Below are positions 8,532 through 25,400 of a stretch of DNA of 64,000 nt, in pieces. Positions within the stretch are counted from its first letter, which is position 1. The number at the start of each line of letters is the position of its first letter. The position numbers were made by a program, and so were the translations under genes. Source of the stretch: an uncultured Myxococcales bacterium (lineage in GTDB: Bacteria; Myxococcota_A; UBA9042; DTJE01); the NCBI GenBank assembly GCA_937975765.1, contig CALJUR010000121.1, forward strand, positions 92,296-156,295. Reading direction: 5' to 3'. The notes under the pieces are model-generated. The model was not told where the DNA came from, ran no database searches, and worked only from the letters and a program-made list of their open reading frames with translations.

Positions 8532-9884
8532 TCACCGTTCGAATCCGCGGTAGACCCGGGCCCTCTTCCGGGCCTGGTTGCGCAGCAGGGGCACCTGCTG
8601 GTCCACGAAGTCCACGATGCGGCCGGCCGTCTTGCCCTCGGCGGGGCGCAGCGCGCGACCCAGGGCCTGGGTGGTCCGGGCCACGTTGCCGTTCGGGGTC
8701 GTCAGGAACACCGTGTCGATGGCCGGCAGGTCGAACCCCTCGCCGACCAGGGAGGTCGTGGCCACCAGCACGGTCACCTCGCCGCGCCGGAACCTGGCCA
8801 GCACCTCGTCGCGGGCCTCCTTCGGCAGGTCCCCGGTCATCGCGGCGACCGGCAGGCCCTCGGCTGACAGCGCCGCCGCCAGGAACCGGCAATGGTCCAC
8901 GCGGTCCGACAGCACCAGCGACCGCTCGCCGCGATGGTCCTTCACGGCGCCCACGATCAGGGCGTTGCGGCCCGGGTCCTTGACCAGCCGGTTGACCAGG
9001 CGGCCGTAGTTGTTGCGGAAGGCCCCCTTGAACGCCGTCGAGACCTCCACCACCTCCGAGGGGGCGATCGAGCCGGCCGCCACCAGGGTCTTCGGCTTGA
9101 CCGCGTGGCAGATCGGCCCGACCACGTCGAACAGCACCGGGTGCAACCGGTCCTTGCGGGTGGGCGTGGCCGACAACCCGATCCGCCAGCGGGCCGCGAA
9201 GCGCTGCACCACGGACTTGAACGTCTCGGCCGGGCAGTGGTGGCACTCGTCCAGCACCACCAGTCCGAACGCGTCCCGCAGCGCCTGCAGGTCCCTGCGC
9301 TGCAACGTCTGGACCATCGCCACCGTCACGTCGCGCCACTCGTCCTGCCCGCCGCCCACCTTCCCCGGGTCGATGCCCAGGAACGTGCGGACCCGTTCGG
9401 CCGTCTGGTCCAGCAGCACCGAGGTGTGCACCACGATCAGGGTGCGGACCCGCAACCGGGCCGCCAGCGCGCAGGCGATGACCGTCTTCCCGCTGCCGGT
9501 CGGGGCCTGGATCACCCCGTCCCGGGCCGCGACGGCTGCGGCGAACGCGGCCTCCTGGTAGTCGCGCAAGTCGCCGATGAACCCCGGCAGGTCCGCCGGC
9601 GGCGCCACGGTCCGGTCCTCGGGCGGCGGGGCGTCCGGCCCCAGCAGGCGGGCCACCAGGTCCCTCGCCCCGCGCGGCAGCAGCACCTCGCCCGGACCGG
9701 CGGCCTCGAACAGGTCCACGGTCCTGGCCAGGTGCCGGCAGGGGCGGCGGAACCGGCGGGCGTCCCAGTAGACCGGGTTTTCGTAGGTGAAGCGCTGGCG
9801 GAGTCCCTCGACCAGCGCAGCCTGCGCCGGGTCGCCGGGGTCGATCCCCTCAAGTCTCAGGCGCTCCTGGACGATGAGTCTCAC
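8532..9884 (-). CDS. superfamily-2 DEAD/DEAH (DECH) box helicase with a ~130-aa N-terminal domain of unknown function
   Basis: It has the Q motif DYQ, Walker A IQAPTGSGKT, motif II VVLDECHH, motif III SATP, motif V LVATTSLVGEGFDLP and motif VI QALGRALR. The start is taken as a GTG at 9884. Confidence 0.75.
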   Translation of the reverse strand: MRLIVQERLRLEGIDPGDPAQAALVEGLRQRFTYENPVYWDARRFRRPCRHLARTVDLFEAAGPGEVLLPRGARDLVARLLGPDAPPPEDRTVAPPADLPGFIGDLRDYQEAAFAAAVAARDGVIQAPTGSGKTVIACALAARLRVRTLIVVHTSVLLDQTAERVRTFLGIDPGKVGGGQDEWRDVTVAMVQTLQRRDLQALRDAFGLVVLDECHHCPAETFKSVVQRFAARWRIGLSATPTRKDRLHPVLFDVVGPICHAVKPKTLVAAGSIAPSEVVEVSTAFKGAFRNNYGRLVNRLVKDPGRNALIVGAVKDHRGERSLVLSDRVDHCRFLAAALSAEGLPVAAMTGDLPKEARDEVLARFRRGEVTVLVATTSLVGEGFDLPAIDTVFLTTPNGNVARTTQALGRALRPAEGKTAGRIVDFVDQQVPLLRNQARKRARVYRGFER

Positions 9885-14833: not shown

Positions 14834-15697
14834 ATGCATCGCCCGGCCGTCCCCCCCCTGCTGCCGGCCCTCGGGCTGGCGTTCGCCCTGCTGTCTCCCG
14901 CCGTCGCCCCGGCGAAGTCGTTCCAGCCCGAACTGGGCGCGTTCCTGGTCACCTGCCCGTCCGGCACGAGGAACTGCGCCCCCGAGGATCTCGACGGCTT
15001 CAGGGACTTCGCGGGCCAACTGGCGTCTTCCCTGATGTCGCGGTTTCCCGGCCCCATCGCCACGCTGGGTTCCCAGCGCTGGGAGGTTTCGTACTCGGTG
15101 GGCCTGACCGAAATTGACCGCGGCCGGGACTGCTTCGACGCGGACCCTGCGACCGGACGACCCGCCGTCTTTTCCGACCCCGGCAAGGTGCTGACCGTCG
15201 GCCAGGTGCAGGTCCGGAAGGGCCTGCCGCATAGCCTGCAACTGGGTGCCGCGCTGACCCAGGTGTTCGACAGCAGCCTGTGGGACCTGGGACTGCAACT
15301 CGCGTTCACGCCGCTGGAGGGCCTGAAGAACGCCCCGGACCTGGGGATCCAGTTGCAGGGCGGGACCGTGCTGGGCGCCGGCGACCTGATCCTGGTGCAC
15401 GCGGGTGCCGCCCTGATCCTGTCCAAGGCGTTCAACGTCGCCGGGCTGTTCACGCTGGCGCCGTCCGGCGGCTACCAGTTCCTGTACGCCTCGGCCAGCA
15501 CGCACCTGACCGGCGGCTACCGGCAGGACCAGACCTCCCCCACCCCGTTCGCCTTCGACCCCCAGAACCTCTTCCTGCACCGGCTGGTGGTGGGGCTGGA
15601 GGCGGTCGCGTCCTGGGTGGTGATCGGCGCCGAGATGACGCTGCAGGTCCCCGCCGCCCGGCGCACCTACGCCGTGAGGGTCGGGGCGCAGTTCTGA
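14834..15697 (+). CDS. secreted protein, putative outer-membrane beta-barrel
   Basis: It has a signal peptide (MHRPAVPPLLPALGLAFALLSPAVAPA). It has Gly-rich amphipathic strands and a C-terminal beta-signal-like tail (YAVRVGAQF). Confidence 0.45.
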   Translation: MHRPAVPPLLPALGLAFALLSPAVAPAKSFQPELGAFLVTCPSGTRNCAPEDLDGFRDFAGQLASSLMSRFPGPIATLGSQRWEVSYSVGLTEIDRGRDCFDADPATGRPAVFSDPGKVLTVGQVQVRKGLPHSLQLGAALTQVFDSSLWDLGLQLAFTPLEGLKNAPDLGIQLQGGTVLGAGDLILVHAGAALILSKAFNVAGLFTLAPSGGYQFLYASASTHLTGGYRQDQTSPTPFAFDPQNLFLHRLVVGLEAVASWVVIGAEMTLQVPAARRTYAVRVGAQF

Positions 15698-15718
15698 GGG
15701 GGTTCGGCGAGGCGTCAG

Positions 15719-17194
15719 CTACAGGCGGAACTGCATTTCGGACGAGCCCAGCCGGATCGAGTCGCCGTCCTTCAGGAACGCCTTCAACACCTTCTGGCCG
15801 TTCAGGAAGACACCGTTGACCGACTGCAGATCCTCGATCTGGAAGGACTTGTCCTGGATCGTGATCGAGCAGTGCCTCTTGCCGACCGACCCGTCAGGGA
15901 TCGCGACGTGGTTCTCGGGCGAGCGGCCCAGGAAGGTGACGTCGTCCACCAGGTGGAAGGTCTGGTTCGCACACGGCCCCTCGCGCACGATCAGGCGCCC
16001 GCGGGACGGGCCGTCGTACTCCTTCGGCCGCCGGGCCTCCTCCTCCTCGCGCCGGCGCCGCCTCTCGGCCGCCGACAGCACGATGAAGCGGATCAGCAGC
16101 ACCACGAACACCACGCACAGCAGGATGACCAGCACCAGCAGCGCGATCGACCACCATGAACGCTGCGGATCCAGCACGCCCACCGCGACGGGATCGGACT
16201 TGTCGGCCTGGCGGCCGGACCCGACGGTCAGCACCAGTTCGGCGGACTTGCTGCGGATCGCGTCGTCCAGCGTGAAGGCCACCTGGTAGACGCCTTCGCC
16301 GGCCAGCCACGGCGCCAGTTTCTGCAGTTCGGCCGGCACGTTCTGGCGCACGGGGACCGTCGAGGCCCAGTTGGCGGACTGGCCCAGCTTGGCCAGGTTG
16401 CCGGAGTTGCCGCCGTCGCTGAGCCCGATGACGTAGGTCTCCAGCCAGCGCCCCTCGCCCTCGGGCACCAGGTTCCTGGCCCACTCCGGGGAGACCGGGG
16501 CGCTGCTGTTCCCGTCCGCCACCACGACCACGACCAGGCGCTGGGCGATGCCCGATCCGCACTTCTGGTTCACCCACGGCTTGACGGTGGACCGCAGCAC
16601 CGATTCCAGCCCGGGCCCCCCGCCGGCCGCCGACCCCGACGGGGCGCACATCCTCGCGACTTCCTCGGCCTCCTTCGGGAACTGGACCTTGCCCTGCGGC
16701 TTGACGCCCGACGACAGCAGCGTCGCGTTGCCTTCCGTCTCGGTGTAGCAGCCGACGGCCAGGCAGTCCTTGTCGTTCACCTGGGTGTACAGCGTCTGGA
16801 AGCCGTCCAGCACGTACCGCAGCGGCGTCCGGGCGCGATCCCCCTCCGAGCCCACCTCGTCCGCGCCGATGATGGCCGACGTCGCCGGCACCAGGAACAG
16901 GATCGACGTGGTGATCTCGCCGCCGGCCCGGTAGCTGTCCGCCTTGGGCTGGACCTTCAGCGACTTGTCGCCGAAGTGCAGGCCCCACTCCCCGTTCGGT
17001 GCCAGTCCCGCGACGGGGCCGTTCTCGTCGTGGGCGTCCACCACGAACGTCAGCCGGCTGTCCTTGGGGTACGCCTTCTTGTCGAAGGTCCTCACCACAA
17101 GCTTGCCCGCGGCGGGCGGCGCGGCCAGCAGCAGCATGGACACGGCGACGCAGCCGGCAGCCAGGCGGCCGGCGACCTTCGGGAAACGGTTCAT
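15719..17194 (-). CDS. bitopic FHA-domain protein (signal peptide, ~400-aa ectodomain, transmembrane helix, cytoplasmic FHA domain)
   Basis: The C-terminal FHA reads LGRSPENHVAIPDGSVGKRHCSITIQDKSFQIEDLQSVNGVFLNGQKV. A transmembrane helix (WWSIALLVLVILLCVVFVVLLI) is followed by RRRREEEE. The ectodomain is vWA-like (RLVVVVVADGNS). Confidence 0.7.
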   Translation of the reverse strand: MNRFPKVAGRLAAGCVAVSMLLLAAPPAAGKLVVRTFDKKAYPKDSRLTFVVDAHDENGPVAGLAPNGEWGLHFGDKSLKVQPKADSYRAGGEITTSILFLVPATSAIIGADEVGSEGDRARTPLRYVLDGFQTLYTQVNDKDCLAVGCYTETEGNATLLSSGVKPQGKVQFPKEAEEVARMCAPSGSAAGGGPGLESVLRSTVKPWVNQKCGSGIAQRLVVVVVADGNSSAPVSPEWARNLVPEGEGRWLETYVIGLSDGGNSGNLAKLGQSANWASTVPVRQNVPAELQKLAPWLAGEGVYQVAFTLDDAIRSKSAELVLTVGSGRQADKSDPVAVGVLDPQRSWWSIALLVLVILLCVVFVVLLIRFIVLSAAERRRRREEEEARRPKEYDGPSRGRLIVREGPCANQTFHLVDDVTFLGRSPENHVAIPDGSVGKRHCSITIQDKSFQIEDLQSVNGVFLNGQKVLKAFLKDGDSIRLGSSEMQFRL

Positions 17195-17220
17195 GGGTCC
17201 TCCCCGGTTGCCTCGGGTTG

Positions 17221-17865
17221 TCAGTCCAGGGCCTTGAAGCGCAGTTCCGTGTGGCCGATCTGCAGGGTGTCGTTGTCGACCACCTGGCACTGCTCGATGC
17301 GCTTGCCGTTGACGCGCGTGCCGTTGGTGCTGCCCGCGTCGCTGATGCGGTAGATCCCCTCGCTGTCGCACACGATCGTCGCGTGGTGCGAAGACACGTA
17401 CGGGTCGGTCAGCACGACCTCCTGGTCGGCGTCGGTGCCCACGCGGTTCCGCCCGGGGACCAGCCGGAAGTCGCGCCCCTTCTGGACGCCGTTCATCACG
17501 ACGACCCACCCCACGCACGGCTTGAAGTTCGCGTCCTCGAACTGGCCGATATTGATGGCCTGGGTCTTGGCCTCGGCGACCTCCTCGTCCGCCATCGGCG
17601 CCGCCTGGACGGCCGTGGCCGCCCGGGTCTCCTTCTTGCCGAACCAGGGGAAACCCATCTTCTTGCCCTCCGGCTTCGCCGGGGCCTTCTTGCCCTTGGC
17701 GGCCCCCTTCGCCTTGTTCACGCCGCCGTCGATCGTCGCGTTGAACTTCGATGCGACGCGGCTCTTGGCCCGGGCCTGGACGTTGTAGACCTTCCCCTTG
17801 GCGGAGATCTCCACCCCCTCGACCCGGGAACGGAACAGGCCCCTGAAGAAATCGGTGACGAACAT
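17221..17865 (-). CDS. FHA-domain protein
   Basis: The C-terminal FHA reads VGTDADQEVVLTDPYVSSHHATIVCDSEGIYRISDAGSTNGTRVNGKRI. The N-terminus is Lys-rich and basic. Confidence 0.75.
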   Translation of the reverse strand: MFVTDFFRGLFRSRVEGVEISAKGKVYNVQARAKSRVASKFNATIDGGVNKAKGAAKGKKAPAKPEGKKMGFPWFGKKETRAATAVQAAPMADEEVAEAKTQAINIGQFEDANFKPCVGWVVVMNGVQKGRDFRLVPGRNRVGTDADQEVVLTDPYVSSHHATIVCDSEGIYRISDAGSTNGTRVNGKRIEQCQVVDNDTLQIGHTELRFKALD

Positions 17866-17898
17866 GGTGAAACGATTATCACCGGGTACCGGAAGGTG

Positions 17899-19272
17899 TC
17901 AATTGCGAAGGGCGGTGAGGGGGGCCGGGATGCGCCCCCCCAGGCGGATGAAGCCGGACGAGTCGAAGGGCTTCACGTCCATCACGATCAGTTCGCCCAG
18001 CAGGCCGCCCAGGTCCACGGTCTGAAGCGCGCGGGCGCCCGGCACCGGGATGATGCGACAGGCCGTGGTCTTGTTGTTGATGACGCCGATGGCCAGTTCG
18101 TCCGCGATGATGGCCGCGATCGTCTCGGGCGGCGTGTCGCCCGGGATCGCGACCATGTCCAGGCCGACGCTGCAGATCGCGGTCATCGCCTCCAGCTTGT
18201 CCAGCGTCAGCGCGCCCAGCCGCGTGGCATCGACCATCCCGGCATCCTCGCTGACCGGGATGAACGCGCCGGACAGGCCGCCGACCGACGACGAGGCCAT
18301 GATGCCGCCCTTCTTGACCGCCTCGGTCAGCAGGTACAGGGCCGCGGTGGTGCCGTGCGTACCGGCCTTCTCCAGGCCCATGGCCACCAGGATGTCCGCG
18401 ACGGAGTCGCCCTGGGCCGGGGTGGGCGCCAGCGAAAGGTCCACCACGCCGAACTGCACGGGGGGGCCCAGCCGGGCCACGACCTGCCGGCCGATCAACT
18501 CGCCGGCGCGGGTGATCTTGAACGCCATCCTCTTGATCGTCTCGGACAGCGTCGTGTAGTCCATGTGCTGTTCCAGGCGCTTCTGTCGCTCGATGGCCGC
18601 CAGCACGACGCCCGGGCCGGACACGCCGACGTTCAGCACGACGCCCGGCTCGCCGACGCCGTGCATGGCGCCCGCGATGAAGGGGTTGTCCTCGGGGGCA
18701 TTGGCGAACACCACCAGCCGCGCGCAGCCGGCCCCGTGCTGGGTCTTGCGGGACGTCTCGGACATCACGCGGCCCATCAGGGCGACCGCCTCCATGTTGA
18801 TGCCGGCCTTCGTGGTGGCCAGGTTGACGCTGCAGCAGACGCGGGTCGTCGCGGCCAGCACGTCGGGAATGGATCGCATCAACTGGGCGTCGCCGGGCGT
18901 GGCGCCCTTGTGCACCAGCGCCGAGTAGCCGGCGATGTAGTCGATGCCGATCTCCAGGGCGGCCTTCTCCAGGGCCGTCGCGGCGGCCAGGTACGACTCG
19001 GGCGGCGCGCCTTCCAGCACCAGGGACATCGGCGTCACCGACACGCGCTTGTTGACGATCGGGATGCCGAACATCTCCTCGACCTCGGAGGCGGCGGCGC
19101 GCAGGCGCCCGGCGCTGTCCACCACCCGGCGGAAGACGAAGTCGGCAACGGTCCCGGGGTCCTTGCCCGGGCAGCCCAGCATGCAGATGCCCATCGTGAC
19201 GGTCCGGATGTCGAGGTGCTCGGCCTCGACCATCCGCAGCGTCTCCTTGACCTCCTCGGGGCGGTACAGCAC
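17899..19272 (-). CDS. UPF0210 / DUF711 PFL-like family protein
   Basis: It is full length (~457 aa) with the conserved N-terminus ...ETLRMVEAEHLDIRTVTMGI and Gly-rich cores. The start is a GTG with AGGAGG 7 nt upstream. Confidence 0.8.
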   Translation of the reverse strand: MLYRPEEVKETLRMVEAEHLDIRTVTMGICMLGCPGKDPGTVADFVFRRVVDSAGRLRAAASEVEEMFGIPIVNKRVSVTPMSLVLEGAPPESYLAAATALEKAALEIGIDYIAGYSALVHKGATPGDAQLMRSIPDVLAATTRVCCSVNLATTKAGINMEAVALMGRVMSETSRKTQHGAGCARLVVFANAPEDNPFIAGAMHGVGEPGVVLNVGVSGPGVVLAAIERQKRLEQHMDYTTLSETIKRMAFKITRAGELIGRQVVARLGPPVQFGVVDLSLAPTPAQGDSVADILVAMGLEKAGTHGTTAALYLLTEAVKKGGIMASSSVGGLSGAFIPVSEDAGMVDATRLGALTLDKLEAMTAICSVGLDMVAIPGDTPPETIAAIIADELAIGVINNKTTACRIIPVPGARALQTVDLGGLLGELIVMDVKPFDSSGFIRLGGRIPAPLTALRN

Positions 19273-19323
19273 GAATAGCCTCCTGGGCGACGCCGGCCGG
19301 CCGTCAAGCGCCGGCCGCGTGAA

Positions 19324-19956
19324 TCACGGGCGGTGCATGGCCTGAAGGATCGCCTCGTGGATGCAGACGACCTCGGCCCCGACGGCCTTGCCCGCGGCCT
19401 CCAGTTTCTCCTTGAAGGCCTTGAAGGACATGCCGCCCTTCAGCGTGTCGAGGTTCAGCACGAAGATCATGCTGAAGAAGTCGCTGACGATCGTCTGGCT
19501 GATGTCCTGGATGTCCACGCCGCACTCGCTGATCGCCTGGGTCATCGCGGACGCGATGCCGGGGCGGTTGCGGCCGGTGGCGACCACGACGGCGCGCTGG
19601 GGCTCGCCCGCCTTCGCCTCGGCCAGCCGCGACGCGGTGTCGGGCGCGGCCAGCGGCGAGTGGGGCGGGATGACCCGGGCGGCCTGGGCGGACATCTCGG
19701 CCATCACCCTGGCGACCTGGGAGGTCACAGCCTGCCGAAGCGCCTCGTCGGACTCGGAGCCCTTGCGCCCGGTGGAGGGGTCGCGCGGAAGGTCCTCGGC
19801 CGACGGCACCGAGCCGCCCGCGTAGACCAGCCGGATCCCCTGCCGCGACGCGTACTCCCGGGCCAGCGGCGTCACGATCATCCCGCGGACGACCTCGACC
19901 ACGCCGTTCTTCGCCAGGGATTCGATCTCGGACTCGGTGACGATCTTCCGGTTCAC
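19324..19956 (-). CDS. ACT-domain protein (UPF0237-like C-terminus) with an uncharacterised ~80-aa N-terminal domain
   Basis: The C-terminal ACT reads AVVVATGRNRPGIASAMTQAISECGVDIQDISQTIVSDFFSMIFVLNL. The N-terminal IVTESEIESLAKNG...MIVTPLAREYASRQGIRLV is unassigned. A GTG start at 19956 lies 14 nt after the EutN-like stop, with an AGG upstream. Confidence 0.6.
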   Translation of the reverse strand: MNRKIVTESEIESLAKNGVVEVVRGMIVTPLAREYASRQGIRLVYAGGSVPSAEDLPRDPSTGRKGSESDEALRQAVTSQVARVMAEMSAQAARVIPPHSPLAAPDTASRLAEAKAGEPQRAVVVATGRNRPGIASAMTQAISECGVDIQDISQTIVSDFFSMIFVLNLDTLKGGMSFKAFKEKLEAAGKAVGAEVVCIHEAILQAMHRP

Positions 19957-19970
19957 GGGAAACCTCGCGT

Positions 19971-20321
19971 TCAGTCCGCGGGCACCGGCGGGACCACGTG
20001 GAACCGGTCCACGATGGCGACGACCGCGGCATCGATGGGGAAGCGGGGGGCCTCGCCGGCCTGCAGTTCCGGCTGGATGCCCACGCGGGCGGCATGTCCG
20101 TAGGCAATGACCACGTCCTCGCCGGGGCCCGCGCCCAGCACGTCGGCCACCACCACGCCGTCGTTCAGTCCCTTCGGGGGCACGCCCTCGTCCGCGGTGC
20201 GGCCTTCCGACCGGACCAGGTCGTCCAGGTGGTACGGGCGGACCAGCAGCAGCCTGAGGCCCTGCAGCCCTTCCCACTTCACCGACGACCAGACCGTCCC
20301 GACGACCCGCGCCATGAACAT
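19971..20321 (-). CDS. EutN/CcmL/PduN-family protein (microcompartment vertex pentamer fold, BMC-P)
   Basis: MARVVGTVWSSVKWEGLQGLRLLLVRP...VVADVLGAGPGEDVVIAYGHAARVG...FPIDAAVVAIVDRFH aligns to E. coli EutN (KLLLVR, VGAG.GE, FDAAVMAIID). GAGGGGGA lies upstream of the ATG. Confidence 0.7.
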   Translation of the reverse strand: MFMARVVGTVWSSVKWEGLQGLRLLLVRPYHLDDLVRSEGRTADEGVPPKGLNDGVVVADVLGAGPGEDVVIAYGHAARVGIQPELQAGEAPRFPIDAAVVAIVDRFHVVPPVPAD

Positions 20322-20412
20322 CGCGTCCCCCTCGGCGGCCGCGCGGGCGTGCCCGCCGCGAACCCGGCGGAAGGTTCCCACGGGGAAGGCGCGGTGTCAA
20401 CGATGCGAGGGG

Positions 20413-20652
20413 TCAGCCCTCCAGTCGGATGATGTTGCAGGTGATGGTCCGCAGCACGCCGTCGATCATCTGGATCTTCGCGTAGGACACCCGCCCCAGG
20501 GCGTTGATGTCGTCCGCCTCGATCCGGGCGATCACGTCGAACTGCCCGGTCACGGCATCGCAGGCCTTGACCTCGGGAATCTGCCGCAGGGCCGAGAGGA
20601 TCCTGGAAATGCTGCCGGAGGCCGCCTCGATCAGAACGTACGCCGACGTCAT
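20413..20652 (-). CDS. stand-alone Lrp/AsnC C-terminal (RAM) ligand-binding domain protein
   Basis: The 79-aa product is MTSAYVLIEAASGSISRILSALRQIPEVKACDAVTGQFDVIARIEADD. AGGAGGGG lies 4 nt upstream of the ATG. Confidence 0.7.
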   Translation of the reverse strand: MTSAYVLIEAASGSISRILSALRQIPEVKACDAVTGQFDVIARIEADDINALGRVSYAKIQMIDGVLRTITCNIIRLEG

Positions 20653-20693
20653 GGTCCCCTCCTGCGCGAGTCGCCGACCCGGGTCCCCCCGCG

Positions 20694-22361
20694 TCAGCCG
20701 CCCTTCTTGAAGAGGCCGACGACGCGGTCCACCAGGGAAGTACGGGTCTTTTGAAAACTCATCTTAGGCCCGGCGGCGCGGGACCGCAAGAGATCCTTCA
20801 GCGCGCGGGCCTCGGCGTGCTCGGGATCCAGCGACAGGGCGTGGCGGATCCGCTCGCGCGCCTCGTCCAGCCGGCCCTCCAGCCGGTCGATGGTGGCCAG
20901 GCACACCAGGCCTTCCACCAGGTCCGGCTCGGACCTCAGGGCATCCTCGGCCAGGCCGCGGGCCTGCTGCAGGTGGTTCGCCGAGGGGGTCATGGCCAGG
21001 ATCGCGAACGCCTGGAAGACCTTGTACTCGGGCTCGTTGGGATCCTGCCGCAGCGCCGCCTCGAACTGGGACAGGGCCTCCGCGGGATGGCGGGCCGGCA
21101 TCTGCTCGACGCCCGACCGCCACAGGGCCCGGGCCTCGGCGATCTCGACGATGCGGCTGTCCAGCGAGGGGGTGGAGATGCCCAGCTGCCGGTTGTACGA
21201 ACTGCGCCGGACCCGGTCGGTCAGGACGTCGCGGACCGAGTCCAGGTGGCGGTGGATCCGGTCCAGGAACTCCAGCGATTCGGCCGGGACCACGCCCTCG
21301 TACTTGGCCCGGGCGAACTGGGCCCTGGCCCGCAGGTAGGCGGCCTGGATGGCCGACTCGCGGGCGTCGATCGGGACCCCCAGCGCCTCGTAGTGGTTCC
21401 GGTTGCGCAACTCGTTCCAGGCGTTGCGAAGCTCCTTCTCGAACGGGTTCGAGACGCCGGCCAGCTGGATCGATTCCTGCGGCCCGATCCAGGCGGGCCG
21501 CTGGGGCCGCTCGGGCGGCGGCTTGCGGGCGCTGGCCTGCGAGACCGGCGGGGGCGGTGGGGGCGGGATCCGATCCACCTGCGGGGAAGGCGGGCGGGGC
21601 GATGCATCCGACGGCGGCTTCGACGAGGTCCCGGCCGCCGGGCCGTGCCCTGCCGGCGACGCTCCCGACGGGGGCCGGCTGCCCGTGGCCGGCGCGTGCA
21701 GCAGCCCCGCGACGATCAGCGCGAACAGGATGCGCACCGTGTCCTCGTGCTCCTGCATCTCCGGGGTCAGCCCGTCCGTCCTCCCCAGGCGCAGGACATG
21801 CAGCGCGGGCACGTCGCCGACGTGGCTCTTGACCTGGGACAACGCGAACTCGAAGTCCGGCGCCATCACCAGGGGGCCGCCGGACAGCATCCTCTGGACC
21901 ACCTGCCGCAGTTCGGTCAGCGGGCCGTCCCGCGACACCGCGCGCAGGAGTTCCGGGAAGGGGTCCACGGGGTGGTCGGACACCACGCCGCTGAGCATCG
22001 GGATCGGGGTGAACTCCCATCCCGTGGCGGGCAGGCCCAGGATCCGGGCCAGCACGCTGCGCGCGTACGATCCGTGCAGCTTGGACGCGTCCTCGGGCCG
22101 GATCACCCCGGCATCGACCAGCCGTCGCGTCGAGGCGAGGCGCTCGGCAGCGGCCGGATCGGGCACCATCCGGGCCCGGACCAGGTAGGCGCCGAAGCCC
22201 AGCGCGGAATCCTCGGATTCCGCCTGGAAGATCCGGCCCTTCGAAAGACCCAGGGTCACGGGTCCGGCCGAGGTCGCAAGATCCAGGTGGCCGGAAACCG
22301 ACTTGGCCTCCAGCCCCCTCAGCAGCCGGTAAAGACCCCAGGGCGGGATCGGCCCCCCCAC
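20694..22361 (-). CDS. DUF4388 + J-domain-like + TPR protein
   Basis: The N-terminal DUF4388 reads LYRLLRGLEAKSVSGHLDLAT. A Pro-rich linker follows. A DnaJ-like segment (HYEALGVPIDARESAIQAAYLRA) and C-terminal TPR repeats complete it. The start is a GTG with GGAGGGA upstream. Confidence 0.6.
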   Translation of the reverse strand: MGGPIPPWGLYRLLRGLEAKSVSGHLDLATSAGPVTLGLSKGRIFQAESEDSALGFGAYLVRARMVPDPAAAERLASTRRLVDAGVIRPEDASKLHGSYARSVLARILGLPATGWEFTPIPMLSGVVSDHPVDPFPELLRAVSRDGPLTELRQVVQRMLSGGPLVMAPDFEFALSQVKSHVGDVPALHVLRLGRTDGLTPEMQEHEDTVRILFALIVAGLLHAPATGSRPPSGASPAGHGPAAGTSSKPPSDASPRPPSPQVDRIPPPPPPPVSQASARKPPPERPQRPAWIGPQESIQLAGVSNPFEKELRNAWNELRNRNHYEALGVPIDARESAIQAAYLRARAQFARAKYEGVVPAESLEFLDRIHRHLDSVRDVLTDRVRRSSYNRQLGISTPSLDSRIVEIAEARALWRSGVEQMPARHPAEALSQFEAALRQDPNEPEYKVFQAFAILAMTPSANHLQQARGLAEDALRSEPDLVEGLVCLATIDRLEGRLDEARERIRHALSLDPEHAEARALKDLLRSRAAGPKMSFQKTRTSLVDRVVGLFKKGG

Positions 22362-22488
22362 GCGTCCCTCCGCAACGCACTCGGTATTGCAGTCTACCCC
22401 AGGGGACGACGCCCGGGCAAACGCGGAACCCGGACCGGCGGGAAGCAGGGGACACCCCGGCCCCGGGGCACGAGTCGACCCGGGTCGT

Positions 22489-25400
22489 TCAGGCGGAGAA
22501 GTACCGCGCCCGGGGATGATGGAAGACCAGGGCCGAGGTGGACTGCTCGGGCACCATCTGCAGCGTAGGCGACAGGGACACGCCCACGCGATCCGCCCCC
22601 AGCAACCGCAGCAGCGGGACCTGGCCGCCCAGGTCGGGGCATGCCGGGTACCCGAACGAGTACCGGCAACCGCGATAGTCCTTGCGCAGCACGGCGGCGG
22701 GGTCCGGCACGTCCCCGTCGGCGATGCCCCAGTCCTTTCGCAGGCGGTGGTGCAGCAGTTCGGCGGTCGCCTCGGCGATCTCGACCGACAGCCCGTGCAG
22801 ATAGAGGTACTCGGCGAACTCCCCGGCCTCGAACAGGGCCTTTTCGCGCGCGGACGCCGCGGCGCCGCAGGTCGCCAGCTGGAAGCCCAGCACATCCCTG
22901 GTGCCGGAGGCCAGGGGCAGCACGAAGTCGGCCAGGCACAGGTGCGGGGGCCGGGCCTGCCGCGGGAACGCGAAGCGGGCCACCTCCCGGGCGCCGTCGG
23001 GCGCGAAGACCACCACGGAATCCCCGTCGGCGTTGGCCGGAAGGAAGCCCCGGATGCCGGCGGGACGCAAGGTGCCGTCGGCCGAATACCGGAGCAGCCT
23101 CTCGTGCAGCATCGGTTCCAGTTGCCCGTCCACCAGCCGCTGCCACTCGGCGTCGGAGCGGTTCCCCTTGCGGAACTGCCACTGCATCCGGAACAGGGAG
23201 GTGCGGTTGACGAAGCGGGCCACCTCCTCGATCGGCAGCGGGTCCTCGACCCTCATGCCCAGGAAGGGCACCGGCGGCACGGCCTCCACCGGGGGGACCT
23301 CCTCGCGGGTGCCGGGGCGGGGAGGCACCTCGGGACAAGGCGTCGCGACGCGGGCCGGCGGCACCGGCGGGGCGCCCGAGGCCAGGGCTTCCATCGCCCG
23401 CAGGCCATCGAAGGCGTCGCCGCAATACGTGACCGGCCCGTCGTACCGCGGGGCCAGATCCTCCTCGACGAAGCGCCGGGTGAGGGCCGCCCCGCCCAGC
23501 AGGACCGGCGTCTTCAGGCCGCGGCGCTGCATCTCGACCAGGTCGTCCCGCATCACGACGGTGGACTTGACCAGCAGCCCGGACAGGCCGATGGCATCCG
23601 CGCCCTCGCGCTGCGCGGCCTCGAGGATCGCCTCGACCGTCTGCCGGATGCCCAGGTTCACCACCCGGTAGCCGTTGTTGGACAGCAGGATGTCCACCAG
23701 GTTCTTGCCGATGTCGTGCACGTCCCCGGCGACCGTGGCCAGCACCAGCGTTGCCTTGGCGACGTCGTCCGACCTCTCCATCCGGGGTTCCATGTGGCGC
23801 ACGGCGGCCTTCATCACCTCGGCGGATCGCAGCACGAACGGCAGTTGCATCTCGCCGCGCCCGAAGCGGTCGCCGACCTCCTTCATCGCGGGCAGCAGGA
23901 CCTGGGTGACGATCGCCATCGGCGCGCGCGCATGCAGTTCCTCGTCCAGGGTCTCGGCGAGGCCCGAACGGTCGCCCCGCAGCACCGCGCGGTGCAGGCG
24001 CTGGGCGGCGGTCAGGGTCGCGGCGACCGGGCCGCCCTCCGCGTCGGGGGTCCCCTCGAACGCCCGCAGGAAGGCCTCCAGCGGGTCGCCCCCGTCCGTG
24101 CGCGCGAACACCAGGTCGTCGGCCAGGCGCCGCTGGGCCGCGGGGATCTCGCCCAGGGGCAGGACGCGGCCCGCGTTCAGGATGGCGGCATCCAGGCCCG
24201 CCTCGACGGCGTGCTGCAGGAACACGCTGTTCAGCACCCGGCGCGCGGCCGGCGACAGGCCGAACGAGCAGTTGCTGACGCCCAGGCTGGTGAACACGCC
24301 GGGGATCTCGGCCTTGACGCGACGCACCGCCTGGAGCGTACGCACCCCCGCGTCGCGCAGCGCCGGGTCGCCCGACCCCAGCGTGAAGGTCAGCACGTCC
24401 ACGAACAGGTCGGCCGGCGCGAAGCCGTGTACCGTCACCAGCCGGTCCACCAGGCGCTTCGCGACCTCGACCTTCCGGTCGACCGTCATCGCCATGCCGG
24501 CCTCGTCGATCGTCAGCGCGACCAGCGCCGCGCCGTGCCGGCGGGCCAGCGCCGCCACCCGGTCCAGCCGCGCGCCACCGTCCTCCAGGTTCACGGAGTT
24601 GAGCACCGCCCGGCCCGGCCAGGCCTCCAGCGCGGCCTGCATCGCGTCGAACTCGGTCGAATCGCAGACCAGCGGCGCCTCGGCCACCTCCCGCAGCCGC
24701 GGCACGAAGGCCCGGGCGTCGGCGGCCTCGTCCCGCCCCACCATGGCCAGGCACACGTCCAGCAGGTGCGCGCCTTCGGCCTGCTGGTCCCGGGCGATGC
24801 CCACCATGCCCTCCAGGTCGCCGGCCGCCAGCCTCTCCCGGAAGGCCTTGCTGCCGTTGGCGTTGGTCCGCTCGCCCAGGATCAGCGGCCGCGGTTCCTG
24901 CGCGAAGGGGACCGCCGAGAACAGCGAGGAGGCGGCCGCGGGAAGCACCGGACTGCGGGCCCCGACCGTCGCCCCGCGCAGGGCATCGACCAGCGCCGCG
25001 ATGTGCGCGGGGGTCGTGCCGCAGCAGCCGCCCGCGAAGGCGACGCCCAGTTCCGTCACGAAGCCCGCCACGTGGCGCGCGAAGTCCGCGGGCGTCAGCC
25101 GGTAGGTCAGCACGCCGCCGACGTTCTCGGGCAGGCCGGCGTTCGGCAGCACGACCAGTGGTAGCGGGCAGGCGCGGGCCAGTTCGGCCAGCACGTGATG
25201 CATGTCCTCGGGGCCGGTCGCGCAGTTGATGCCGAAGGCCGACACGCCCGGCAGGCCGGCCAGCGACACGACCGCCGCCAGCGGGTCCGTGCCCAGCAGC
25301 ATCGTGCCGTTCCGGTCGAAGGTCACCTGCACGAACAGCGGCACCTCGCGCCCGGCCGCGGCCATCGCCTCCCGGGCCGCCAGCACCGCGATCCGGGCCT

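Follow-up and report, generated by a model that had tools for sequence, protein, structure and literature searches.

A BMC-P gene next to an ACT-DUF711 pair in Myxococcota: a reduced form of a four-paralog operon and a putative docking module

We analyzed a 64-kb stretch of DNA from an uncultured Myxococcales bacterium (contig CALJUR010000121.1), here called the window; position 1 is its first letter, and all coordinates below are window positions. On its minus strand, the window carries a gene for a EutN/CcmL-family protein, i.e., a bacterial-microcompartment (BMC) vertex protein, or BMC-P. This gene is followed by genes for an ACT-domain protein of the UPF0237 type and for a UPF0210 (DUF711) protein. 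The three genes form a core that is conserved in dozens of Myxococcota species. In more distant relatives the pair is preceded by four tandem BMC-P paralogs, named N1 to N4, and the window keeps only N4. The ACT protein has an N-terminal module similar to parts of the microcompartment proteins EutQ and PduM and of TIGR02536. We propose, with somewhat better than even odds (probability about 0.55), that the ACT protein docks DUF711 onto a BMC-P assembly, which would be either a dispersed microcompartment or a structure without hexamers.

The BMC-P protein and the conserved three-gene core

The EutN-like gene, the N4 ortholog, is located at positions 19971-20321 (minus strand; 116 amino acids [aa], ATG start). 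Its product matched PF03319 over the entire profile (positions 1-83 of 83, E=7e-20, 71.8 bits versus a cut-off of 25). The closest sequence match in the PDB was 5V74, the shell BMC-P of Haliangium ochraceum (1.4e-6), and the alignment with 5V74 revealed two loop insertions relative to canonical BMC-P. An AlphaFold2 (AF2) model (pLDDT 80, pTM 0.71) was compared with the PDB using Foldseek. The top 47 matches were all BMC-P, with 4I7A (GrpN; TMt 0.83-0.85, root mean square deviation ~2.2 Å) in first place, followed by CcmL, EutN, CsoS4, and 5V74. The protein carries GAGPGED and AIVD, which correspond to the motifs GAGxGE and I(V/I)D. In alignments of the N4 subfamily, residues G63, A64, G67, E68, D69, and I103 were invariant, and G65, V104, and D105 were at least 90% conserved. 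At the interface of pentamer and hexamer, according to a 2026 review (PMC13370225), the acidic residue and a glycine of GAGxGE make the contacts to an Arg and a Lys that BMC-H contributes. The 116-aa protein is a true BMC-P, and the PF03319 and Foldseek results confirm its assignment to the EutN/CcmL family in an earlier note on this DNA.

Next in the cassette are the ACT gene (19324-19956, minus strand; 210 aa, GTG start) and the DUF711 gene (17899-19272, minus strand; 457 aa). The ACT domain (residues 120-208, encoded at 19333-19599, minus strand) matched ACT_6 (9e-10) and the UPF0237 model NF001220 (1.7e-19, positions 2-89 of 90; 69.9 bits, just below the equivalog cut-off of 74). It also matched the structure 1ZPV of Streptococcus pneumoniae SP0238 (2.4e-9 by sequence, Foldseek TMt 0.86). 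The DUF711 protein matched PF05167 (2.5e-167, 557 bits), NF003700 (7.7e-196, 651 bits versus a cut-off of 440), and 2HA9, the structure of SP0239 (3.3e-149, residues 7-457 aligned to 6-446). The DUF711 fold is a ten-stranded beta/alpha-barrel of the RNR/PFL superfamily (ECOD, PMC4390871). In the literature searched, we found no functional studies of DUF711, UPF0210, or UPF0237, only proteomics mentions and one fold-classification note. This agrees with the earlier description of UPF0237/UPF0210 as a widespread structural-genomics pair of no known function.

The earlier note had described a four-gene cassette at 17899-20652, in which a gene for a RAM-domain protein (79 aa) precedes these three genes. 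Pfam and NCBIfam profiles bore out the identities of all four proteins and their placement on the minus strand. The intergenic gaps of 91, 14, and 51 nucleotides (nt) were likewise correct. So was the Shine-Dalgarno sequence at each start, since direct reading gave the purine-rich stretches AGGAGG, GAGGGGG, GCGAGG, and AGGAGG 6-8 nt ahead. The gene calls on an identical metagenome contig correspond to the same four proteins.

A scan of one genome per species yielded 471 genomes with an N4-type protein, and the best 80 of the 471 loci were studied. All 80 are from metagenome-assembled genomes (MAGs), mostly labelled Myxococcota, Myxococcales, Polyangia, or Deltaproteobacteria. Gene order was counted by tblastn and clustering of open reading frames (ORFs) in the 65 related loci with at least 2.5 kb of downstream sequence. 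The order EutN-ACT-DUF711 was found in 49 of the 65, and in 43 of these 49 the ACT domain starts at most 560 nt past the N4 stop codon. This order persists while N4 identity falls from 90% to ~50% and the guanine-plus-cytosine (GC) content of the locus ranges from 0.52 to 0.74. Because it recurs in 49 of 65 loci, the adjacency is not due to chance. The conserved core consists of the three genes EutN-ACT-DUF711. Thus, the predicted conservation of the cassette holds for these three and fails for the RAM gene, which occurs in nine close relatives only. We found no published description of a BMC-P/ACT/DUF711 locus type in the searchable literature, and the suggestion that the conserved adjacency marks an undescribed system is upheld.

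The earlier note had also seen the cassette as built around an orphan EutN gene, a picture that the relatives changed. In those with at most 70% EutN identity, three further PF03319 genes lie ahead of the window-type gene. Locus L084 (related loci are numbered with the prefix L) is a tight operon of six genes that overlap or abut, with unrelated flanks. Its products are four EutN proteins (111, 129, 104, and 110 aa; 61-77 bits on PF03319), an ACT protein of 222 aa that has the extension, and a DUF711 protein of 458 aa. The paralogs fall into four distinct groups, each with its own conserved signature. Identity is ~28-37% among the groups and 32-42% to canonical BMC-P. The order N1-N2-N3-N4 is fixed in 41 loci, and N4, the ACT-proximal paralog, stands alone in 17 loci, including the window. 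At the paralog junctions, we counted a 4-nt overlap in 94 of 166 cases and a distance of at most 30 nt in 144 of 166, implying coupled translation. The window cassette is a reduced form of the Myxococcota operon (c5)-N1-N2-N3-N4-ACT-DUF711 that keeps only N4.

The gene c5 of this operon encodes a small protein of ~115-175 aa that contains an internal repeat (…FGSKEKLVDAL…) and in many cases has a Lys/Ala-rich tail. In 43 loci (L026 and L039-L083; e.g., L059:~8540-9020 and L082:1918-2271), c5 precedes N1 on the same strand, and in 34 of these the two genes are 0-26 nt apart; the window has no c5. In the fuller loci, c5 seems to be a seventh member of the operon. A Pfam search of c5 and of another cluster, c7, matched no family. 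In the N3 group (e.g., L084:9687-10001 and L020:9682-9999), the contact motifs are degraded: GADTGH, GARIGN, or DASEGE is found instead of GAGxGE, and the end motif is IVEG or IVDG. N1 and N4 retain the contact motifs. Given the degraded N3 motifs, the paralogs may not all contact the same partner. One MAG, bin-5834, contains two window-type cassettes (RAM, EutN, and the N-terminal module) on contigs 083 (L004) and 169 (L008), so that either the cassette was duplicated or the bin contains mixed strains.

The N-terminal module of the ACT protein

The ACT protein was said in the earlier note to have an unassigned N-terminal domain of 80 aa. We could assign its first ~45 aa (residues 1-45, encoded at 19822-19956, minus strand) by similarity to EutQ, PduM, and TIGR02536; a linker and an amphipathic helix follow. 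The N-terminus of the protein matched three NCBIfam entities, TIGR02536 (an ethanolamine-utilisation protein; 3e-5), the EutQ N-terminus (its shell-binding part, H1/H2), and the C-terminal end of PduM, and these matches were weak but specific. In the alignment with the EutQ model NF012001, residues 4-83 corresponded to profile positions 3-82. When 20 diverse orthologs were compared with NCBIfam one by one, TIGR02536 was matched by 19, the PduM models by 17 (TIGR04493) and 14, and EutQ by 13. No other NCBIfam family was matched by the module in these 20 orthologs. With Pfam, PDU_like was matched by 16 of the same 20, and the sole other recurrent match was E3_binding, the peripheral-subunit-binding domain (6 of 20).

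When 1.84 billion representative proteins were searched without heuristics for the 51-residue module, 20 proteins were retrieved. Ten of them were checked: five were ACT fusions, and four (P0248, P0253, P0257, and P0260) were TIGR02536/EutQ/PduM-like proteins bearing the module at an internal or C-terminal position. In the window and in all related loci, the module profile matched the ACT gene and no other gene. Judged from these profiles, the ACT protein shares a domain with EutQ, PduM, and TIGR02536 and is not a member of those families.

The AF2 model of the ACT protein had an overall pLDDT of 82 (module 78-87, ACT domain ~95). In the model, residues 1-45 form a compact beta-alpha-beta-beta-alpha-beta unit, and residues 46-67 form a disordered linker (pLDDT ~53-58). 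Then come a long amphipathic helix (residues 68-91, EALRQAVTSQVARVMAEM..., encoded at 19684-19755, minus strand), which has linkers of low confidence on both sides, a short helix (residues 107-116), and the ACT domain. The Foldseek matches of the whole model were dominated by the ACT domain. As a separate observation, a conserved CxxC (e.g., ELCASCAEEARRRG and IDFCQMCLEQER) immediately precedes the ACT domain in many of the orthologs (L051, L059-L063, L068, L072, L074, L081, L026, and L039-L048); helix 107-116 of the window protein is Cys-free.

Helices equivalent to residues 68-91 are present in all orthologs, including those that lack the module. The latter belong to one Polyangia group, in which a conserved, amphipathic helix (…LRRLVAEVTREV…) opens the protein and a linker connects it to the ACT domain. 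Encapsulation peptides are amphipathic helices of ~15-20 aa that are tied to the cargo by a flexible linker (PMC8217296). The helix and linker of the module-less orthologs would fit this format. In the modeled window protein, helix 68-91 appears to resemble either an encapsulation peptide or the H3 region of EutQ. Salmonella EutQ was found to need its N-terminal 99 residues in order to reach the Eut microcompartment, and this region is enough to bring GFP there (PMC12487888). There, H1 and H2 bind the shell, a flexible region follows, and H3 and H4 bind encapsulation peptides of the cargo (PMC12487888).

The neighborhood of N4 and ACT has counterparts among the genes of the proteins that share the module. 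In the pdu operon, pduM is located directly before pduN, and in Firmicute eut operons the TIGR02536 gene adjoins eutN. Both arrangements echo the adjacency of N4 and ACT. As evidence of a functional link between BMC-P and ACT-DUF711, the module is stronger than the adjacency.

Proposed docking of DUF711 and alternative explanations

According to our proposal, N4 would form the usual pentamer, and in the fuller loci its three paralogs would be made together with it in coupled amounts. The ACT protein would serve as an adaptor: its EutQ-type module, linker, and amphipathic helix would dock the ACT domain onto a BMC-P-containing assembly. DUF711, the presumed enzyme or client, would come as the partner of the ACT protein, in which the ACT domain presumably serves as a small-molecule sensor and regulator of DUF711. 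Three independent lines of evidence lead us to the adaptor role: gene order and overlap are conserved, the ACT protein gained a module otherwise seen only in microcompartment proteins, and every ortholog has an amphipathic helix attached through a flexible linker. We infer that the module binds BMC-P and that ACT and DUF711 form a complex, and likewise encapsulation and any chemistry.

Several observations weigh against the proposal. The module scored 15-28 bits, compared with whole-family cut-offs of 50-193 bits for EutQ, PduM, and TIGR02536; it falls far below them because only ~42 residues are shared. Of 58 orthologs, 31 contained a strict amphipathic pattern of 12 residues, compared with 17% of shuffles, an enrichment without a clean separation; the window protein does not contain the pattern. 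The EutQ module is reported to bind the BMC-H/BMC-T interface and not BMC-P (PMC12487888). That ACT and DUF711 form a complex is an assumption based on the conservation of the gene pair. Six loci have other genes, encoding secreted or membrane proteins, between N4 and ACT. In addition, 16 of the 65 arrays lack ACT-DUF711 downstream, and the genes found there are heterogeneous, without a common replacement. Since about a quarter of the arrays lack the pair, the array has a role of its own, with ACT-DUF711 as a frequent client and not an obligate part. Finally, six BMC-H/BMC-T queries found no match in the window and in ~10 kb around each of 83-84 related loci (1.28 Mb in total).

In one Polyangia group (L039:10392-12263, L040:10426-13421, L041, L048, and L026:4523-5398), the genes inserted between N4 and ACT encode a secreted Cys-rich protein, whose end is Kazal-like (CGCDGKTYGNDC), as well as one or two membrane proteins. 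The ACT protein of this group keeps the module and two amphipathic helices. In three loci without ACT-DUF711 (L070:10444-12216, L078:10495-12180, and L083:2018-3703), N4 and the gene that follows share a 4-nt overlap, and the product of the latter, of ~560-590 aa, has a signal-peptide-like N-terminus, an odd partner for a cytoplasmic shell protein.

What kind of assembly would be involved depends on the hexamers. Two tblastn sets, one with PduA, HO BMC-H, and CcmK2 (E<=1e-3) and one with HO-type BMC-H, BMC-T, and BMC-Tdp (E<=1e-2), gave zero matches in the window, as expected from the earlier statement that it has no shell genes of these classes. The 1.28 Mb of window plus related loci contained no convincing aldehyde dehydrogenase (AldDh) either, the one marginal match (E=0.004) being in L077, ~9.6 kb downstream of the array. 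Of the genes in the main-locus definition for metabolosomes (PMC8217296), BMC-H and BMC-T are absent from the locus, and in Axen's terms it is "satellite-like." One explanation is that the genomes lack BMC-H and BMC-T altogether, and that a scaffold or cage made of pentamers only is built by the BMC-P paralogs (in the window lineage, by N4 alone) and recruits ACT-DUF711 via the EutQ-type module. This would account for the lack of BMC-H/BMC-T matches around the related loci; HO-type loci in other Myxococcota MAGs (CAYMOR01, DATFWX01, and CAYPHU01, none of them array-bearing) keep BMC-Tdp, BMC-H, BMC-P, and AldDh side by side. It would also suit the four BMC-P genes per array, an unusual number given that a 2014 survey listed only one genome with more than three (PMC4207490). 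The window lineage kept precisely the ACT-adjacent paralog. Moreover, pfam05167, pfam13740, and DUF711 do not occur in the searchable text and 18 supplementary files of the 2021 catalog, whose main loci need BMC-H and BMC-P (PMC8217296), although this is weak evidence. Such a structure is physically conceivable, because CcmL alone, with nanoparticles as the template, can assemble in vitro into a closed cage (PDB 7WKC; PMC8812686). However, each of the two shell folds is considered exclusive to microcompartments, and as a rule they are found together (PMC8217296), N4 retains the hexamer-contact motif GAGxGE, and the EutQ module binds hexamer/trimer interfaces. Dispersed loci of FRAG types with BMC-P triplets are known (2021 catalog, PMC8217296), and by our own estimate a cage of 12 pentamers would be too small for a 50-kDa enzyme complex. 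We therefore consider a hexamer-less structure possible but rather doubtful. For the docking proposal, we lean slightly toward a dispersed microcompartment with hexamer genes elsewhere, because GAGxGE is retained, the known partners of the EutQ module are BMC-H/BMC-T, and the FRAG loci provide a precedent.

Two further explanations were considered. The EutN genes and the ACT-DUF711 pair could be unrelated neighbors that were co-inherited in one clade, as the quarter of arrays without the pair might suggest; the pair also exists without an adjacent EutN gene, e.g., as SP0238/SP0239 in S. pneumoniae. This is very hard to reconcile with an order that is kept over the range of N4 identity and GC content given above and with starts and stops that overlap. 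In addition, it was the ACT protein alone that acquired the microcompartment-specific module and helix, which are absent from the 91-aa ACT protein of S. pneumoniae, and the search of 1.84 billion proteins argues against the module being a generic domain. An improbable, though slightly better, explanation is the one favored in the earlier note, in which the RAM protein senses a metabolite and controls EutN, ACT, and DUF711 in a four-gene ligand-regulated system, perhaps co-transcribed with the flanking FHA and TPR genes. The RAM gene (20413-20652, minus strand; PF01037, E=2e-13, 50.5 bits versus a cut-off of 25) precedes EutN on the same strand at a distance of 91 nt and has a Shine-Dalgarno sequence of its own, an arrangement shared by the close relatives L004, L007, and L014-L016. 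With only 79 aa, its product is a stand-alone RAM domain without a helix-turn-helix. However, every four-paralog locus lacks the gene, as do L005, L009-L013, and L017. It always follows the DUF4388/TPR gene and in L006, L008, and L023 is 1.4-2.4 kb away from EutN. RAM is thus a lineage-specific neighbor outside the conserved core, and its proposed regulatory role has no support beyond adjacency in one sub-lineage. The FHA gene (17221-17865) has its own sigma-70-like promoter, TTGACA-16-GATAAT (17875-17902, minus strand; 11 of 12 matches), which overlaps the DUF711 stop codon and lies 10 nt before the start of the gene. This is the only promoter-like site in 15500-22600, where shuffles average 0.3, and it delimits the cassette on the 3' side. 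The same interval contained no intrinsic-terminator-like site. FHA genes follow DUF711 in the closest relatives only; in L010, L012, and L017, they are on the other strand and several kb away. Because of the separate FHA promoter and a synteny limited to close relatives, we place the FHA and TPR flanks outside the system, and the idea of their co-transcription with it is not supported.

The putative docking sequences and the vertex-gene neighbors provide a first cellular lead for the UPF0210/UPF0237 orphans (2HA9 and 1ZPV), pointing to a compartmentalised or scaffolded reaction. The fuller loci represent four ancient BMC-P paralogs that are co-translated with a specific client. A hexamer-less structure, if true, would be a natural descendant or precursor of the bacterial microcompartment. 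It would be the first cellular context for DUF711/UPF0210 and would give PF03319 a function outside shells. Should the array-bearing genomes be without BMC-H, the rule that the PF03319 fold is unique to microcompartment shells would need revising. Together with its linker, the ~45-aa module is also a candidate for a portable tag with which proteins could be docked onto those of a shell.

Genomic surroundings and comparison with known systems

With a GC content of ~0.71 overall and 0.70-0.75 over most of its length, the window represents core chromosome. Between 40000 and 56000, the GC content drops to 0.66-0.68, and this part is a block of large genes with the look of high expression; it contains two ORFs of ~1380 aa, several small ORFs, and a 397-aa ORF. 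Based on ORF sizes and order, the 40-54 kb block may correspond to rpoB/rpoC, a ribosomal-protein cluster, and EF-Tu. A long minus-strand ORF (22489-~26000), located upstream of the DUF4388/TPR gene, has a translation that suggests a cobalamin-dependent methionine synthase. Synteny of its homolog (cluster c29) is limited to the close relatives.

Among known locus types, the array is closest in kind to the satellite, satellite-like, and FRAG loci (Axen 2014; Sutter 2021). These also combine one shell-gene class with a microcompartment-associated gene, and FRAG and HO loci have several BMC-P paralogs. In contrast, satellite and FRAG loci are defined by a BMC-H locus elsewhere in the genome, whereas the array is known here from the locus alone. 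Furthermore, there are four paralogs instead of a triplet, and the neighboring ACT-DUF711 pair is absent from the searchable material of the catalog. The HO-type BMC-P 5V74, also from Myxococcota, shares Pfam family and fold with N4, is ~42% identical to the N4 group, and likewise has GAGxGE and IVD. Its gene is part of a Tdp-H-P-AldDh-T locus, whereas N4 has no shell or aldehyde dehydrogenase neighbor. N4 differs from it by the two loop insertions, a TVWSxVKW signature, and ACT-DUF711 downstream.

The ACT protein resembles EutQ in its layout of a small N-terminal module, a flexible region, and a helix, with ACT residues 4-83 aligned to EutQ positions 3-82. The similarity is sub-threshold and confined to the N-terminal region. 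The C-terminal domain of EutQ is a cupin acetate kinase, while the window protein has an ACT domain. The partners of EutQ are BMC-H/BMC-T, and the window and related loci encode none nearby. With PduM and TIGR02536 ("eut_hyp"), the ACT protein shares the ~42-aa module, which is C-terminal in PduM and occurs as repeats in TIGR02536-like proteins. Those are small structural proteins of full PDU/EUT microcompartments and have no ACT domain. The reported targeting signal of PduM is its N-terminal helix and not the shared module (PMC11463388). In S. pneumoniae, SP0238 and SP0239 are clear orthologs of the ACT domain and DUF711 and are adjacent as a pair. SP0238 has 91 aa and no N-terminal extension, whereas the Myxococcota ACT protein adds ~120 residues and sits behind BMC-P genes.

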